Shown: in pieces, positions 1 through 8,513 of the stretch
How positions within the stretch are numbered: the first letter of the stretch is position 1
How the letters are laid out: every line of letters starts with the position of its first letter
IMG/VR virus record: IMGVR_UViG_2563366822_000013
Length of the DNA: 8,513 bases
Source of the DNA: a virus
Taxonomy: Duplodnaviria > Heunggongvirae > Uroviricota > Caudoviricetes
Direction: 5' to 3' (one strand)
The notes under the pieces: model-generated
Database searches by the model: none
The model's input: the letters and a program-made list of their open reading frames with translations, nothing else
Told to the model about the DNA's origin: nothing
Position numbers and translations under genes: made by a program

Positions 1-1053
1 ATGACGTTACCACTAAGAGATTACTATCCTATTGAGCGCGCGGCAAAGTTATTAGACTGCGATATTGATGATCTTATTCATTGGGCTGTGACAGGCTGCA
101 TTCGTATTTGTATAAAAATTGAATCTGCATATGGAATATTAAATATCCCAGATGAAAAAGATGTGGTTAATTTCGATTGTCTGCGTAAGTTTCTGGATTC
201 AGAACCATGTAAATCACGGTTATCTGACCTTGATGCCATTTCAGAAAGGGCGGCAGAACACCATGGTTTTAATTATATAAAAACCAAGTCGAGAATTATA
301 TTTGATTCAATGTGCGAATCTCTAAGTCATTCATATGTAGCGCCCAAATTTGGTGACATAGCAATTGATACTGCATTTGCTTTGTTAAATTATTATAACA
401 GGGGGTTATATTATGGGGAAAATTATCACATATATAGTGTATATCGAATAGCAACGGATGAAAGAGCTGTGGCAGTTGTACCACCAGTATTTAAAGGTAT
501 TCAAGAAAAATACCATAAGTATTTTGTTGAAATAGGCGGCATTTTCGCTTTGGGGGGAAGTTTTTTTGCCAACTATGATTTTAATAAGAAGTTTAAAGCC
601 AACCGAATAATTAATAGCAATATTATAATTGCTTCTGACGTTGATATACATATAGGAGTAATTGTTACTGAGGATGTTTCTTTTGATATTGGTGATTTAT
701 ATATCTTAAAGAGTGATTTTTTAAAAATACAAAATGCTACAAGCTCCAATAGCGAGTTAAGAAAAGATTATGTTAATCCATTGGCAGACACTTTATATTT
801 GTGTGCGGGTAACAATATATTAAGCTCTGAGGATGGAGAGAAAGATATATGCACCAATAAAAACAATATAGAACGATTATCTAAAACAATGAAGGATTTT
901 TTTCGTGCGATGCTTGTTATTCATTATAAAGAACTCGAAAACAATCCGGTAAAACTTGCTGATATATTGACCGCGGAAGCAAAAGAGGCAGGACTCAATA
1001 TGCGCTTTGATAAAAGTACTATATCAAGATGGATTAAGGCATCATCTCAGTAA
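1..1053 (+). CDS. Hypothetical protein, 350 aa, low-GC cargo gene; HTH-like segments at both termini, central domain unrecognised
   Basis: Uninterrupted ORF from ATG at position 1 to TAA at 1051-1053. Visibly AT-rich (roughly 35 percent GC by eye) against about 50 percent for the rest of the window. N-terminal segment IERAAKLLDCDIDDLIHWAVTG and C-terminal segment GLNMRFDKSTISRWIK both have a helix-turn-helix look. No catalytic motif recognised. Start coincides with the window edge, so upstream context is unseen. Confidence 0.6.
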   Translation: MTLPLRDYYPIERAAKLLDCDIDDLIHWAVTGCIRICIKIESAYGILNIPDEKDVVNFDCLRKFLDSEPCKSRLSDLDAISERAAEHHGFNYIKTKSRIIFDSMCESLSHSYVAPKFGDIAIDTAFALLNYYNRGLYYGENYHIYSVYRIATDERAVAVVPPVFKGIQEKYHKYFVEIGGIFALGGSFFANYDFNKKFKANRIINSNIIIASDVDIHIGVIVTEDVSFDIGDLYILKSDFLKIQNATSSNSELRKDYVNPLADTLYLCAGNNILSSEDGEKDICTNKNNIERLSKTMKDFFRAMLVIHYKELENNPVKLADILTAEAKEAGLNMRFDKSTISRWIKASSQ

Positions 1054-1736: not shown

Positions 1737-1766
1737 TTGACTCGCTTTTTTGTCATGGCGTATCGT
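1737..1766 (+). promoter_or_regulatory. Putative sigma70 promoter for the downstream operon (-35 TTGACT, 18-bp spacer, -10 TATCGT), overlapped by palindrome GCAATATTGC
   Basis: TTGACT at 1737-1742 and TATCGT at 1761-1766; the perfect 10-bp palindrome GCAATATTGC lies immediately upstream of and overlapping the -35. Sequence-pattern call only. Confidence 0.3.
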
Positions 1767-1793
1767 TTGCCCGCACCTCATAAAACAGGTGCC

Positions 1794-1980
1794 GGGTTTG
1801 ACAGCCTGAATAAATTGGCGGGTAGCCGCTTGTATTCCGTAATGCGGTTTTTTTGTGCCCGTAATACCACCCTTTCCCGTATTATGGCGGGGCGTAATGG
1901 GGGAGCTTTATGCTCGCTGGTTTCCCAATTTGCCAGTCTGTCAACCCTGTTACGTCTCGCCACCACGTTTGACAGCGTTG
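1794..1980 (+). promoter_or_regulatory. Untranslated leader with three mutually complementary segments (A 1794-1818, B 1925-1947, C 1967-1977), analogous to P4 seqA/seqB/seqC immunity elements
   Basis: Segment A GGGTTTGACAGCCTGAATAAATTGG can pair with segment B CCAATTTGCCAGTCTGTCAACCC over 20 bp (one bulge, one mismatch, one small internal loop). Segment C repeats the 10-mer GTTTGACAGC of A and can pair 8 bp with B. A T7 run at 1848-1854 preceded by short GC stems follows A. The region sits between the putative promoter and the first small ORF. Confidence 0.3.
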
Positions 1981-2018
1981 TAGTGAGGCTTCTTAAACTT
2001 GAATTGGGAGCCTTTCAT

Positions 2019-2192
2019 ATGGCTATATCAACACGCCCTGATTTTATCTGGCGCTTTATGCAGTGCCACGGTAAAAATATCCGCCTTCATACCGTTACCG
2101 CTGCCAGTGAGCGCGAAGCGCGCGCCCTGCTTCCGGCATCTCGTCTGGTCTTTGTTGCCCGTATCCGTGTCCGGGAGGCGTGCCATGTTTAA
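2019..2192 (+). CDS. Small protein, 57 aa, possibly Icd-like host cell-division inhibitor (kil analogue); first gene of the coupled operon
   Basis: GGGAG Shine-Dalgarno at 2006-2010, 8 nt before ATG 2019. Sequence MAISTRPDFIWRF...TVTAASEREARALLPASRLVFVARIRV resembles, from memory only, small Icd-like proteins of P4-like prophages. The 175-aa ORF from 1665 in the track is rejected as read-through of the leader. Confidence 0.45.
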   Translation: MAISTRPDFIWRFMQCHGKNIRLHTVTAASEREARALLPASRLVFVARIRVREACHV

Positions 2193-5862: not shown

Positions 5863-6867
5863 ATGCCGATCAGAAAGCTGGATGATGGGCGATGGTTGCT
5901 CGATATCAGGCCATGCGGACGTAAAGGAAAGCGCGTCAGAAGAATATTTGACAGAAAATCGATAGCTGTAGCAACTGAACGGTACATCATAGCGAACGCC
6001 GAAAAACGCGAGTTTATACAGGGCTACCGCGACCGGAGAACCCTCAGCGATTTACTGGAGTTGTGGTGGGTTTATCACGGTCAGCACAGGCGAAAGGCAG
6101 GCACAGATAAACAGCAGCTTGGCAAAATCATTAATGAGCTTGGAGCTGACATGTTTGCGGTAGAGCTCGACAAATTAAAAATCATTGCATGGCGATCGCA
6201 GAAAATTGCGGAAGGGCTAAAGCCGTCCTCAGCAAACAGATATATGAACAGATTATCAGGGATGTTTACAACCCTGAAAAAGATCGGTTTGTGGGATGCA
6301 GAACATCCTGTTCGCGGTATTCCTGTTCTTTACGTAAAGCAGCGAGAGATGGCCTTTTTATCAAAAAACGAGGTCACATTGTTGCTTGACAGACTGAATG
6401 GAGATCAACGAAGGGTTGCGCTCTTATGTCTTTGCACCGGAGCTCGCTGGAGTGAAGCCAGCAGATTACACGGAGAGCAAATAGTTCATAACAGAATCAC
6501 GTTTCTGGAAACCAAAAACGGCAGGAAAAGAACGGTGCCCGTGTCGCAGGAGATATGCAATATCGTAAAAACAAAAGAAACCGGGCGACTGTTTGATGTG
6601 AAGTACAGAGAGTTTTGCCGGGCATTAAAAAAAATAAAACCCGATTTACCGAGGGGGCAGGCTGCGCATGTATTGCGGCATACATTCGCCAGTCACTTTG
6701 TGATGAACGGTGGCAACATTCTTGCGCTACAAAAAATCCTTGGGCATGCGACAATTCAGCAGACTATGGCATACGCACATTTTGCACCGGATTATCTGGC
6801 AGATGCCATGAGATTTAACCCGGTAGCCAACATAGTGATCACCGAAGAAAAAGAGCCAGCAGAGTAA
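5863..6867 (+). CDS. int: Tyrosine recombinase / phage integrase, P2-type; 334 aa
   Basis: AAGGAGGGGG Shine-Dalgarno embedded in the primase 3-prime end; ATG 5863 lies 2 nt after the primase stop. N-terminus MPIRKLDDGRWLLDIRPCGRKGKR resembles P2-family integrases. Box I TGARWSEA and box II HVLRHTFASHF...LGHATIQQTMAYAHF with the catalytic Tyr codon at 6772-6774. Confidence 0.93.
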   Translation: MPIRKLDDGRWLLDIRPCGRKGKRVRRIFDRKSIAVATERYIIANAEKREFIQGYRDRRTLSDLLELWWVYHGQHRRKAGTDKQQLGKIINELGADMFAVELDKLKIIAWRSQKIAEGLKPSSANRYMNRLSGMFTTLKKIGLWDAEHPVRGIPVLYVKQREMAFLSKNEVTLLLDRLNGDQRRVALLCLCTGARWSEASRLHGEQIVHNRITFLETKNGRKRTVPVSQEICNIVKTKETGRLFDVKYREFCRALKKIKPDLPRGQAAHVLRHTFASHFVMNGGNILALQKILGHATIQQTMAYAHFAPDYLADAMRFNPVANIVITEEKEPAE

Positions 6868-7114: not shown

Positions 7115-7434
7115 GGGGGGGGATGCGCAAAGCGGTTACAACGGTTACAAATTTAGAATTACTTATTTTTGTATTATATATCAATATATTATAACTGGTC
7201 GGATGAGTTACAAAAGCGGTTACAACGCGGTTACATGTAACCGTTTTGTTAGGTTACAGGCGGTTACAGGTTAAGTTTTTAATTGATTGATAATAAAGTG
7301 CTTTTTGAAACCTGTAACCGTTGTAACCGCAGTGTAACCGCAAAGCGGTTACAAACAATATCCATTAAAATCATGTTGTTAAGTGGTGTTTTTGACTGTT
7401 GTAACCGTTGTAACCGCTTTGCGCACCCCCCACC
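7115..7434. repeat. Array of 13 copies of (GC)GGTTACA / TGTAACC(GC), 7 forward and 6 reverse, bounded by 36-bp imperfect inverted repeats; candidate replication iterons or integrase arm-type sites
   Basis: Forward copies start at 7134, 7143, 7218, 7229, 7252, 7262 and 7347; reverse copies at 7236, 7313, 7322, 7333, 7400 and 7409; a degenerate AGTTACA at 7206. Copies are mostly paired at 9-11 bp spacing. Perfect palindromes CGGTTACATGTAACCG (7228-7243) and TGTAACCGC-AAA-GCGGTTACA (7333-7353). Outer arms GGGGGGGGATGCGCAAAGCGGTTACAACGGTTACAA (7115-7150) and its near-exact inverted copy (7399-7434). An AT-rich tract lies at 7151-7200. Confidence 0.75.
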
Positions 7435-7658
7435 GGATTATGAGGCAGAGCCCCAAAACAACTGGCCTGACCTCTAACAAAAATGCAACATCAGTCATTG
7501 ATTTTTTGGGGGCTGTCAGTCACGGGGAGTTGCCCTGTTGTTTGGCAGAAAAATGAAGTATGTACATGCGCGGCGGGGATGGTAAAAAACGTAATACACG
7601 CGGCGCAGTTGCCATAAAAAATCGCTCAAAAGCACTCTTTTTGACGCTATTGTTCATC

Positions 7659-7685
7659 TGCACAAAAGTGCACAAATTTGCACAA
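7659..7685 (+). repeat. Three direct TGCACAA repeats at exactly 10-bp spacing, with a fourth copy at 7751-7757; candidate regulator binding sites
   Basis: TGCACAAAAG / TGCACAAATT / TGCACAATTT at 7659, 7669 and 7679, then GTGCGTGCACAAAAAAC with TGCACAA at 7751-7757, in a region without credible coding potential. Confidence 0.4.
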
Positions 7686-7983
7686 TTTTTTAGAGTAACT
7701 TTTTGCCCATCCGGCCCAGTACTGGCGCGCCCGGAGGGCGATTTCGTGCGTGCACAAAAAACGGTGAGTTTTTCGCGCGCAGGTGACGGGGGAACAGCAC
7801 GCGTTTCAGGGGGTAAATTACATTTTCGCTAAAGACTGCGGGAATGCCTGACCGGATTAGTTTTATCGCCAGCCAGAGCCGTTCTTATGGCAAGAGAGAA
7901 CTGATACGGGGAATGTGAGGAGTGAGCATGGAAACTGTGTGCCTGCGCGTAATACGCGGCGACCGTCGCGGATTTATTTGATA

Positions 7984-8012
7984 CAGCCAGAGGGGGCGGC
8001 AGAAGATATAAT
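7984..8012 (+). promoter_or_regulatory. Putative promoter of the ogr-like gene: consensus -10 TATAAT with no good -35
   Basis: TATAAT at 8007-8012, 35 nt upstream of the ATG, with Shine-Dalgarno AAGAGGAG at 8033-8040. The sequence at the expected -35 position is a poor match, suggesting possible activator dependence. Confidence 0.25.
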
Positions 8013-8046
8013 AGGTCAAATTTCACACCAGTAAGAGGAGCGTGAT

Positions 8047-8229
8047 ATGTCTTTCCCTTGCCCGGCCTGTGGCGCTTCAGCCCGCACCCGTGGTCGTTCG
8101 TTGGAAGAACACGAACAAAATATCTACAAAACGTATTACCAGTGCAATAATATTGAGTGTGGGGCCTGTTTTTGTACGCTTGAGTCGTTTGTACGCATTA
8201 CTAAGCGCAGGAAGTCGAAAACTTCATAG
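8047..8229 (+). CDS. ogr: Ogr/Delta-family zinc-finger late-gene transcriptional activator, 60 aa
   Basis: Strong Shine-Dalgarno and ATG 8047. Protein MSFPCPACGASARTRGR...YYQCNNIECGACFCTLESF carries the CxxC...CxxxxC zinc finger and the surrounding pattern of P2 Ogr (CPLC...YHQCQNVNCSATF.TYES). Confidence 0.8.
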   Translation: MSFPCPACGASARTRGRSLEEHEQNIYKTYYQCNNIECGACFCTLESFVRITKRRKSKTS

Positions 8230-8279
8230 TGATTTGTATAACACAGCCAGCGAGCGTGACCGGCTGCGTTATTTCTGTA

Positions 8280-8513
8280 TTACGTCGTGTGGTTCTGGTC
8301 ATTTGCCCAGGCCCACACATCCCCCGCTACATTGCGTCCGTTGCAGTCTTCTTCCTGCGTTTCCCCGGCCTTAATTCCCTGACTGATAAACATTCTGACG
8401 CACTGGGAGTAGTTCATCTCTCTGTCCTGACATATCTGATTTATTTTATGGTCGATTTCGTGCGGGATACGAATACAGCGTAATACGCATCGCATTTTCT
8501 TTTGTTTTTTCAT
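8280..8513 (-). CDS. Hypothetical small DNA-binding protein, ribbon-helix-helix-like, 77 aa; start at or beyond the window edge
   Basis: Minus-strand ORF MKKQKKMRCVLRCIRIPHEIDHKINQICQDREMNYSQCVRMFISQGIK has a beta-strand/helix/helix pattern compatible with CopG/Arc-type RHH folds. It is more protein-like than the overlapping plus-strand ORFs and is convergent with the ogr-like gene. The start codon is the last three bases of the window. Confidence 0.45.
   Translation of the reverse strand: MKKQKKMRCVLRCIRIPHEIDHKINQICQDREMNYSQCVRMFISQGIKAGETQEEDCNGRNVAGDVWAWANDQNHTT

Follow-up and report, generated by a model that had tools for sequence, protein, structure and literature searches.

The window (the whole 8,513-nucleotide stretch of DNA analysed here) is, judging from its sequence, most of a small integrated element. 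In order it carries genes for an orphan 350-aa protein and an AlpA-type regulator (PF05930, 30.5 bits against a cut-off of 21), a C4-type antisense RNA region, an Icd-like open reading frame (ORF), several small ORFs, genes for an 897-aa primase and a second tyrosine integrase, iterons, a cos-like region, an ogr-like gene, and a convergent gene for a 77-aa protein, at whose start codon the window ends. The main features are as follows.

5863–6867, plus strand: second tyrosine integrase, helper-type, with Int_N and Phage_integrase domains; 82% amino acid and 74% nucleotide identity to the PhiR44_2 integrase
7115–7434: cluster of about 16 CGGTTACA/TGTAACCG iterons, arranged as two inverted blocks flanking an AT-rich core
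7658–7824: cos-like region of P88-like P2-type phages, 81–83% identity to P88, PhiR44_2 and vB_EcoM-569R5
7782–7800: candidate 19-nt cohesive-end sequence GGTGACGGGGGAACAGCAC, within the cos-like region
7591, 7949, 8133, 8277 and 8480 (start positions; 7591–8486 overall): five copies of the heptamer GTAATAC/GTATTAC, a candidate operator
7955–7970, plus strand: hairpin followed by GATTTATTTG, terminator-like, upstream of the putative ogr promoter
8007–8012, plus strand: TATAAT, -10 hexamer of the putative ogr promoter
8035–8040, plus strand: Shine-Dalgarno sequence GAGGAG, six bases 5' of the ATG
8047–8229, plus strand: ogr-like gene, encoding a 60-aa single-domain C4 zinc finger
8238–8272: hairpin with a 14-bp stem, from folding, between the convergent ogr and 77-aa genes
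8280–8513, minus strand: convergent 77-aa gene, conserved in position and divergent from the Sid-like/capsid operon described below

Copies that are 96–98% identical are found in 55–57 of 5426 complete E. coli genomes. In close relatives the island is about 12.5 kb long and sits between gcd and hpt; at this site in FDAARGOS_1299 its first gene is that of a 403-aa P4-type integrase, and a mazEF pair stands at its far end. The 403-aa integrase of L001, which belongs to the window's own lineage, has an Arm-DNA-bind domain. The slot that holds the second integrase in the window is occupied by a MazEF pair in other lineages, and behaves as a variable cargo slot.

The 897-aa protein is a Toprim primase with a P-loop NTPase region, and these motifs are all that it has in common with P4 alpha. 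The 101-aa ORF before it has no similarity to P4 epsilon. The two iteron blocks, whose 36-nt arms are 94% complementary, follow directly after the primase and the second integrase, and the cluster is probably the satellite origin, by analogy with P4 ori/crr.

Within 1760–2192 (plus strand), Rfam identifies three elements in a row: a c4-a1b1 target, which at 36.9 bits is under its cut-off, then isrK at 52.3 bits and C4 antisense RNA at 70.5 bits. This row overlaps or precedes a 175-aa ORF with an Icd-like C-terminus (NF033153, 52.7 bits). The region looks like an antisense-RNA immunity module of the P1/P7/P4 type, placed in the early region of the satellite. The 350-aa protein (1–1053, plus strand) has no Pfam, PHROG or NCBIfam match. 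Its place right after the integrase is conserved, and orphans of 313–336 aa are found there in other lineages.

The cos-like site lies 250 bp upstream of ogr. The matching stretch in P88, PhiR44_2 and vB_EcoM-569R5 is non-coding and adjoins the portal gene. In some genomes RefSeq annotates a 90-aa 'hypothetical protein' that overlaps this region (7560–7832, plus strand); it is probably not a gene, because in the phages the region either is non-coding or has its annotation on the other strand. The 19-mer agrees with P2 cos (GGCGAGGCGGGGAAAGCAC) in 14 of its 19 positions. When the cos-like region was aligned directly to the cos junctions of P2 and P4, nothing significant emerged, the similarity being to the P88-like subgroup only, for which GGTGACGGGGGAACAGC(A/C)C is a candidate form of the cos sequence.

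The phage Ogr proteins closest to the 60-aa protein (51–54% identity) also come from the P88-like group, which comprises the named members P88, PhiR44_2, 500465-2 and Xuanwuvirus. The cos-like region, the closest phage Ogr and the second integrase are three independent features, and all three point to P88-like (Xuanwuvirus) P2-type phages as the helpers. The P88-like portal region is present in 1146 of the 5426 E. coli genomes, which is about a fifth and so would provide a large pool of helpers. A second cos-like locus, identified by sequence match, occurs in 39 of 56 satellite-bearing genomes compared with 21% of the remainder (p 8e-15). The carriers FDAARGOS_1299 and CFSAN027346 each have such a second locus. 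Among the best 60 of the 1146 portal-region carriers there is no listed satellite carrier.

The ogr-like gene and its protein

The ORF at 8047–8229 consists of 60 codons from ATG to TAG, and its translation is MSFPCPACGASARTRGRSLEEHEQNIYKTYYQCNNIECGACFCTLESFVRITKRRKSKTS. A preliminary description of the window, made from the sequence alone, had taken it for a single-domain Ogr/Delta-like protein, and this identification is well supported. Pfam PF04606 (Ogr_Delta) matches with an E value of 2.4e-11 and a score of 43.8 bits, against a gathering cut-off of 26.3, with residues 5–51 aligned to positions 2–46 of the 47-position model; phrog_603, which is the PHROG containing P2 Ogr and P4 Delta, matches with E 2.6e-10. 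RefSeq already annotates the gene, by homology, as 'ogr/Delta-like zinc finger family protein'.

The alignment with Ogr and Delta that had been suggested as a check places all four cysteines over those of P2 Ogr and of both P4 Delta halves. In a set of 12 sequences (the 60-aa protein with seven relatives encoded on other islands, P2 Ogr, a P88-like phage Ogr, and P4 Delta entered as its two halves), the zinc-binding residues C5, C8, C33 and C38 are invariant, as are R15 and F42. Family-specific features retained besides the cysteines are R15, F42 and the sequence YYQCNN-ECG. P2 Ogr (72 aa) is thus a single-domain C4 zinc finger like the 60-aa protein, with the four cysteines, R15 and F42 in common. 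The two are nevertheless only 30–34% identical. The cysteine pattern of P2 Ogr is CX2CX22CX4C (PMC3931495), while that of the 60-aa protein is CX2C-X24-CX4C, with CX24C in place of CX22C. The loop is therefore two residues longer, which could give a different DNA specificity. The 60-aa protein is the shortest of the family and has no counterpart of the P2 Ogr C-terminal tail. The P88-like Ogr, represented by the 86-aa protein of PhiR44_2, shares the CX2C-X24-CX4C spacing and the sequence YYQCNN(I/L)ECG, and its phage also has the cos-like region and the integrase in common with the element; it differs in a C-terminus that is 26 residues longer, and in that its gene follows gene D, as in P2.

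Against the NCBIfam Ogr equivalog NF007241 the 60-aa protein scores 30.1 bits, well under the cut-off of 116, and it is accordingly classed here by sequence as a member of the Ogr/Delta family and not as a P2 Ogr orthologue. A word-indexed protein search with it returned near-identical E. coli proteins only. The ORF is intact in 8/8 readable close copies, one of which has three synonymous changes in the gene and an identical protein. The integrity, family membership and genomic context of the gene are thereby established. On its own, it would appear to be a genuine but ordinary Ogr/Delta zinc-finger late-gene activator, one more member of a well-known family, and its value lies in the element that it marks.

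The signals around the gene are largely as first described. A strong -10 and a poor -35 had been noted; the -10 is indeed TATAAT, and the -35 position, 17 bp upstream of it, reads CAGCCA (7984–7989), which matches TTGACA at 3/6 positions. A consensus scan called no sigma-70 promoter here. The -10, the ribosome-binding site and their spacing are invariant in four relatives, and a good -10 is found at a comparable distance from ogr in three further lineages. Pairing in the upstream hairpin (7955–7970) is preserved in L001 and L005 by G-C/G-U swaps, and its fold is no more stable than that of shuffled sequence; if active as a terminator, it would insulate ogr against upstream transcription. For the hairpin at 8238–8272, which is likely to be a bidirectional terminator, the predicted folding energy is -20.9 kcal/mol (z -4.4) when read from the minus strand and -15.1 kcal/mol (z -1.0) from the plus strand.

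Given these two hairpins, the first of them with its run of T, ogr is probably a separate, monocistronic unit, as had been proposed, and the convergent gene reported downstream of it is conserved across lineages. The P2 ogr gene has a similar arrangement: the annotation of the P2 record shows it as monocistronic and separate, under a promoter of its own that has a weak -35, and followed by a terminator. They differ in location, since P2 ogr is encoded by the phage and follows gene D, whereas ogr here is encoded by a satellite and lies beside cos. No TGT-N12-ACA dyad, the canonical Ogr site, is found upstream of ogr, even when one mismatch is allowed, and autoregulation through such a site was dropped as an explanation for this reason.

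A 17-codon ORF (7929–7982, plus strand) with a GAGGAG ribosome-binding site extends into the hairpin that precedes the ogr promoter. In L001 and L005 this ribosome-binding site is weakened to GACGAG, so that the ORF may be there by chance.

Sid-like and capsid genes beyond the window, and their conservation

The preliminary description regarded ogr as having neither sid nor psu next to it, and held that absence of capsid-redirection genes from the full element would count against its reading. As regards sid, the first of these points does not survive, and the outcome of the second is the opposite. In all the close relatives (L001, L005, L019–L023) a gene for a 236-aa protein starts about 170 bp past the start of the convergent gene, and is immediately followed by a gene for a 423-aa protein; these are respectively a remote homologue of Sid and a capsid protein of the P2 family, as set out below. 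The 'missing sid' is thus an artefact of the window edge. As the window stops before the Sid-like gene, both genes are assigned to its own copy from relatives that are 96–98% identical. The absence of psu was correctly noted: none of nine island proteins, a set that takes in neither the toxin-antitoxin pair nor two small ORFs that follow the Icd-like gene, matched the Psu PHROG.

The 423-aa protein matches Pfam Phage_cap_P2 with E 3e-73, which makes it a major capsid protein of the P2 family. Its identity to P2 gpN is 34% across the whole of gpN, and it has about 85 additional N-terminal residues. Identity to the capsid protein of the likely helper group is 35%, and to any capsid protein in the phage collection at most 39%, and it is accordingly an old and separate lineage.

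The 236-aa protein proved harder to place. The L001 sequence has no direct Pfam or PHROG match, and its BLASTP matches to P4 Sid (E 0.51), P2 gpO (E 0.04) and also Psu are not significant. A word-indexed search with it returned only near-identical E. coli proteins, while an exhaustive search found homologues of around 240 aa with 24–40% identity. The link to Sid depended on aligning this family and not on any single sequence. The P4 Sid PHROG, phrog_6165, is matched colinearly by 5/12 family members (best E 8e-5), and hhalign of the family profile against P4 Sid gives E 4e-5 and a probability of 70%, the alignment spanning the common motif W...L..aGGV.tEE. Similarly, the AlphaFold model for the single sequence is poor (pLDDT 49.5), whereas the alignment-based model has a pLDDT of 92.8, and Sid (7jw1) is its best structural match. 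The same profile gives a probability of 0.3% against Psu. The predicted relationship to Sid is therefore a remote one, and the family alignment is too divergent to serve as the basis for scanning viral contigs. A gpO-like internal scaffold was also considered, both for the 236-aa protein and for the N-terminal extension of the capsid protein, and rejected.

Nine lineages were compared, namely the window's own and those obtained by looking up where seven distant Sid-like homologues lie in their genomes, with L014–L016 counted once. The arrangements found were:

L015, L016: Ogr 75 aa, convergent 76-aa gene, Sid-like 241 aa, capsid 393 aa
L017: Ogr 98 aa, convergent 107-aa gene, Sid-like 240 aa, capsid 497 aa; also at the gcd-hpt site
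L073: Ogr 64 aa, Sid-like 240 aa, capsid 420 aa
L074: Ogr 84 aa (other strand, with a 65-aa gene beside it), then Sid-like 239 aa and capsid 450 aa
L075: Sid-like 245 aa and capsid 345 aa come first, followed without change of strand by Ogr 77 aa
L012, L013: a pair of unfused single-domain Ogr genes, of 72 and 64 aa, directly 5' of Sid-like 276 aa; contigs end before any capsid gene
L018: Sid-like 253 aa, 78-aa gene, capsid 350 aa; in the 955 bases upstream, a Terminase_5 protein and a small regulator, no Ogr seen

In eight of the nine divergent lineages a single-domain Ogr gene is found no further than about 1 kb from the Sid-like/capsid pair; the contig of the ninth (L018) ends 955 bases upstream. 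The single-domain Ogr gene is thus a core part of the family, and its exact placement alone varies. The islands have a common plan. An integrase comes first, then an orphan of about 320 aa and a regulator of the HTH or AlpA type; small genes and a large primase follow, and after them a variable slot, with either a toxin-antitoxin pair or a helper-type integrase in it, and the morphogenesis module. Phage_ASH or Derepression domains are found in some of the lineages, and likewise in P4. This compact set of genes recurs at different integration sites, with Sid-like proteins that are only 24–40% identical, and the islands are a family of mobile elements and not prophage debris.

The pair of single-domain Ogr genes 5' of the Sid-like gene (L012 1291–1705, L013 393–807) looks like an unfused counterpart of the tandem double domain of P4 Delta. 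The satellite capsid proteins have variable N-terminal extensions (L001 18590–19861, L018 1731–3028, L075 955–1992), with total lengths of 393–497 aa compared with 357 aa for P2 gpN. L018 has a 350-aa capsid protein, and its Sid-like and capsid genes are parted by a distinct 78-aa gene, which suggests that the capsid N-terminus in other lineages is a fused small scaffold-like or adaptor domain.

Promoter regions of the Sid-like genes, which for L001 means 17715–17880, were compared in four lineages, three of which could be aligned with each other. All four have a T(G/C)T-N12-ACA dyad, centred 77–92 nt 5' of the Sid-like start codon:

L015: perfect dyad, 92 nt from centre to ATG
L018: perfect dyad, 84 nt
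L017: dyad with one mismatch, 77 or 80 nt
L001, from the lineage of the window: dyad with one mismatch (TGT-N12-AGA), 85 nt
P4 Psid, for comparison: perfect dyad, 81 nt

No exact TGT-N12-ACA is present close to either ogr or the Sid-like gene, whether in the window or in L001, and the L001 dyad becomes visible only when one mismatch is allowed and the lineages are compared. Dyads with a single mismatch are common by chance, with about 0.7 expected per 150 nt, so that the argument rests on the conserved position and on the two perfect cases. The sites in the P2 PO and PF promoters are imperfect too (TGT-N12-CCA). The P/O promoter region of PhiR44_2, at 14895–15048, aligns with the satellite promoters across the dyad, and has the right half-site ACAACAAAA in common with them.

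A second kind of repeat is found in the same region. In addition to the five heptamers GTAATAC/GTATTAC in the window, four further copies occur in the promoter region just past it. In L001 this makes nine copies in the 1.1 kb from cos to the Sid-like gene, compared with 0.13 expected; the island as a whole has 11, and 21 kb of flanking chromosome has one. One pair of heptamers flanks the Ogr-type dyad (repeats in L001 17771–17868). The L015 lineage has five copies, and the heptamer is the top 7-mer in two lineages. Other lineages have a corresponding repeat of different sequence (GTCAGAC in L017, GCCTGCC in L018). The repeats lie between dyad and start codon, and are also scattered from cos to the Sid-like gene. 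A lineage-specific operator of this kind fits a co-evolving DNA-binding protein, for which the 77-aa protein is the obvious candidate. Its N-terminal motif LRxIRIPHxLDxxI and the position of its gene are conserved in five lineages. Weak matches to CopG (E 0.04), RelB/DinJ (E 0.007) and the MatP RHH (E 0.27), taken with this motif, suggest a ribbon-helix-helix fold; a profile of the family had no significant match among PDB sequences. We therefore tentatively describe it as a probable ribbon-helix-helix regulator.

Proposed role, and relation to known satellites

The conserved module, the dyad and the repeats are present, and from them a scheme can be predicted that covers DNA binding, activation, packaging, capsid size, helper identity and a repressor role for the 77-aa protein. 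We consider it likely that the 60-aa protein is the Ogr/Delta activator of a satellite of about 12.5 kb that parasitises a P88-like helper, and that it switches on both the satellite's own late operon and those of the helper. It would be expressed from its own promoter, which has no Ogr-type site, and in the manner of P2 Ogr and P4 Delta would bind imperfect TGT-N12-ACA dyads near -55 and recruit sigma-70 RNA polymerase. This would activate the morphogenesis operon of the satellite, to give a Sid-like external scaffold and its own P2-type capsid protein, and most likely also the late operons of a resident or infecting helper, which would contribute portal, terminase, tail and lysis functions. 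Heads would be formed from the satellite capsid protein with the Sid-like scaffold and joined to the helper portal and tail, and satellite DNA would be packaged via the helper-type cos site. Repression of the morphogenesis operon, via the lineage-specific short repeats, would probably fall to the small conserved protein whose gene lies between ogr and the Sid-like gene.

The 60-aa protein might instead be an internal regulator only, acting on its own Sid-like/capsid operon, with the helper late genes driven by the helper's 86-aa Ogr. The helper group does have its own Ogr gene, to which the satellite Ogr is just 51% identical, and the sole conserved dyad mapped in the satellite is that of its own morphogenesis promoter. 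We regard such a restricted role as unlikely, because the alignment of the PhiR44_2 P/O promoter over the dyad, including the shared right half-site, makes cross-recognition likely, and because the known satellite counterpart, P4 Delta, acts on both sets of promoters (PMC8628076). It is less probable again, and indeed very unlikely, that ogr is a functionless leftover of a decayed P2-like prophage. The P2-type pieces (ogr, capsid, cos and the P2-type integrase) do occur here without tail, portal and terminase genes, as would be expected of such a remnant, but the recurrence of the compact gene set at different sites and at low Sid-like identity speaks against it, as do the intact ORF, ribosome-binding site and -10 in all close copies, the age of the capsid lineage, which does not resemble recent debris, and the element's own primase, iterons, AlpA and P4-type integrase. 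Least probable of all is a generic zinc ribbon, for example a Lar-like restriction alleviation protein or a factor that interferes with the helper by mistiming, and no productive activator: helper interference is frequent among satellites, and there is a weak match to Pfam Lar_restr_allev (E 0.071) besides other zinc-ribbon matches, but these fall far under their cut-offs where Ogr_Delta is well over its own, R15, F42 and YYQCNN-ECG are kept, and linkage to the Sid-like/capsid genes is tight in 8/9 lineages.

The reading that we prefer, of an activator serving both satellite and helper operons, puts the element close to P4 in its working. P4 Delta (166 aa) is likewise an Ogr homologue that a satellite encodes, in linkage with a scaffold gene of the Sid family and with a cos of helper type, and P4 has a TGT-N12-ACA dyad about 80 nt 5' of its sid-type gene. 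In contrast, P4 Delta is a tandem double domain inside the operon that it activates, whereas the activator here is a single domain in a unit of its own; a convergent regulator gene separates it from the Sid-like gene, a capsid gene follows the latter, and there is no psu. The delta of the P4-like retronphage phiR73 is a single-domain Delta within a cluster of the sid-delta-psu type, and is a possible satellite precedent. The earlier suggestions of a satellite-like element with its activator outside a sid-delta-psu operon, and of a different regulatory wiring, can now be qualified. The first stands, as ogr has its own transcription unit. The second stands in so far as no Ogr-type dyad precedes ogr, and a small, probable repressor gene lies between it and the morphogenesis genes; the single domain is no part of it, being the norm for the family (P2 Ogr, P88-like Ogr), to which the P4 double domain is the exception.

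P4-like satellites have been defined by a psu-delta-sid operon, and are reported to have very little homology to known phages (PMC8628076). Of the P4-like criteria, the element has integrase, AlpA and Delta homologues, and a Sid homologue that is remote only. With no psu, a remote Sid and no recognisable epsilon in this lineage, it appears to be P4-type in its working but outside the P4-like definition (PMC10085698).

Satellites that supply a homologue of the helper major capsid protein, as this element does, are known elsewhere. Ccm of SaPIbov5 is a satellite capsid-protein homologue tied to small capsids, and the same has been proposed for PmCI172 (PMC6092414), while cfPICIs build their own capsids (PMC10085698). 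Unlike the element, all of these have other helpers (siphoviruses, Mu-like phage), no Ogr-type activator and no Sid-type scaffold. Moreover, cfPICIs carry portal, protease, adaptor and small terminase genes, and here only the capsid and Sid-like genes are present, with no portal, protease, adaptor or terminase annotated in the island. Since that packaging and assembly set is missing, the element is by its gene content not a capsid-forming PICI.

Searches of open-access papers turned up no description of an element that combines Ogr, a Sid homologue and a P2-family capsid gene, and the survey papers on P4-like satellites make no mention of capsid genes in such elements. It is apparently an undescribed, capsid-carrying relative of P4. 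A broader proposal, which we make tentatively and hold to be about evenly balanced or slightly less, is that there is an undescribed family of satellites of P2-type phages, which use their own divergent capsid protein and a Sid-type scaffold in place of Psu, take only portal, terminase and tail from the helper, and are controlled by a switch consisting of a stand-alone Ogr and a small divergent repressor with lineage-specific operators. Satellite finders require components of psu-delta-sid, and elements of this kind have therefore probably been overlooked by them.

If correct, the combination of Ogr, a remote Sid and an own P2-type capsid protein would widen the known ways of exploiting P2-type phages. 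It would offer a natural system in which to ask whether a satellite capsid protein and an external scaffold set capsid size, and also a form that could plausibly be intermediate in the origin of Sid and Psu. The presence of a Sid homologue beside a P2-type capsid gene could, if true, show in what way the hijacking module of P4 originated from genes of P2-like phages.

It is worth adding that in one genome (L016, 12929–20726) a related satellite adjoins a P2/186-type prophage, with an Int_N integrase, CI repressor, CP76, Fil and GpA; this arrangement is a possible helper-satellite tandem.
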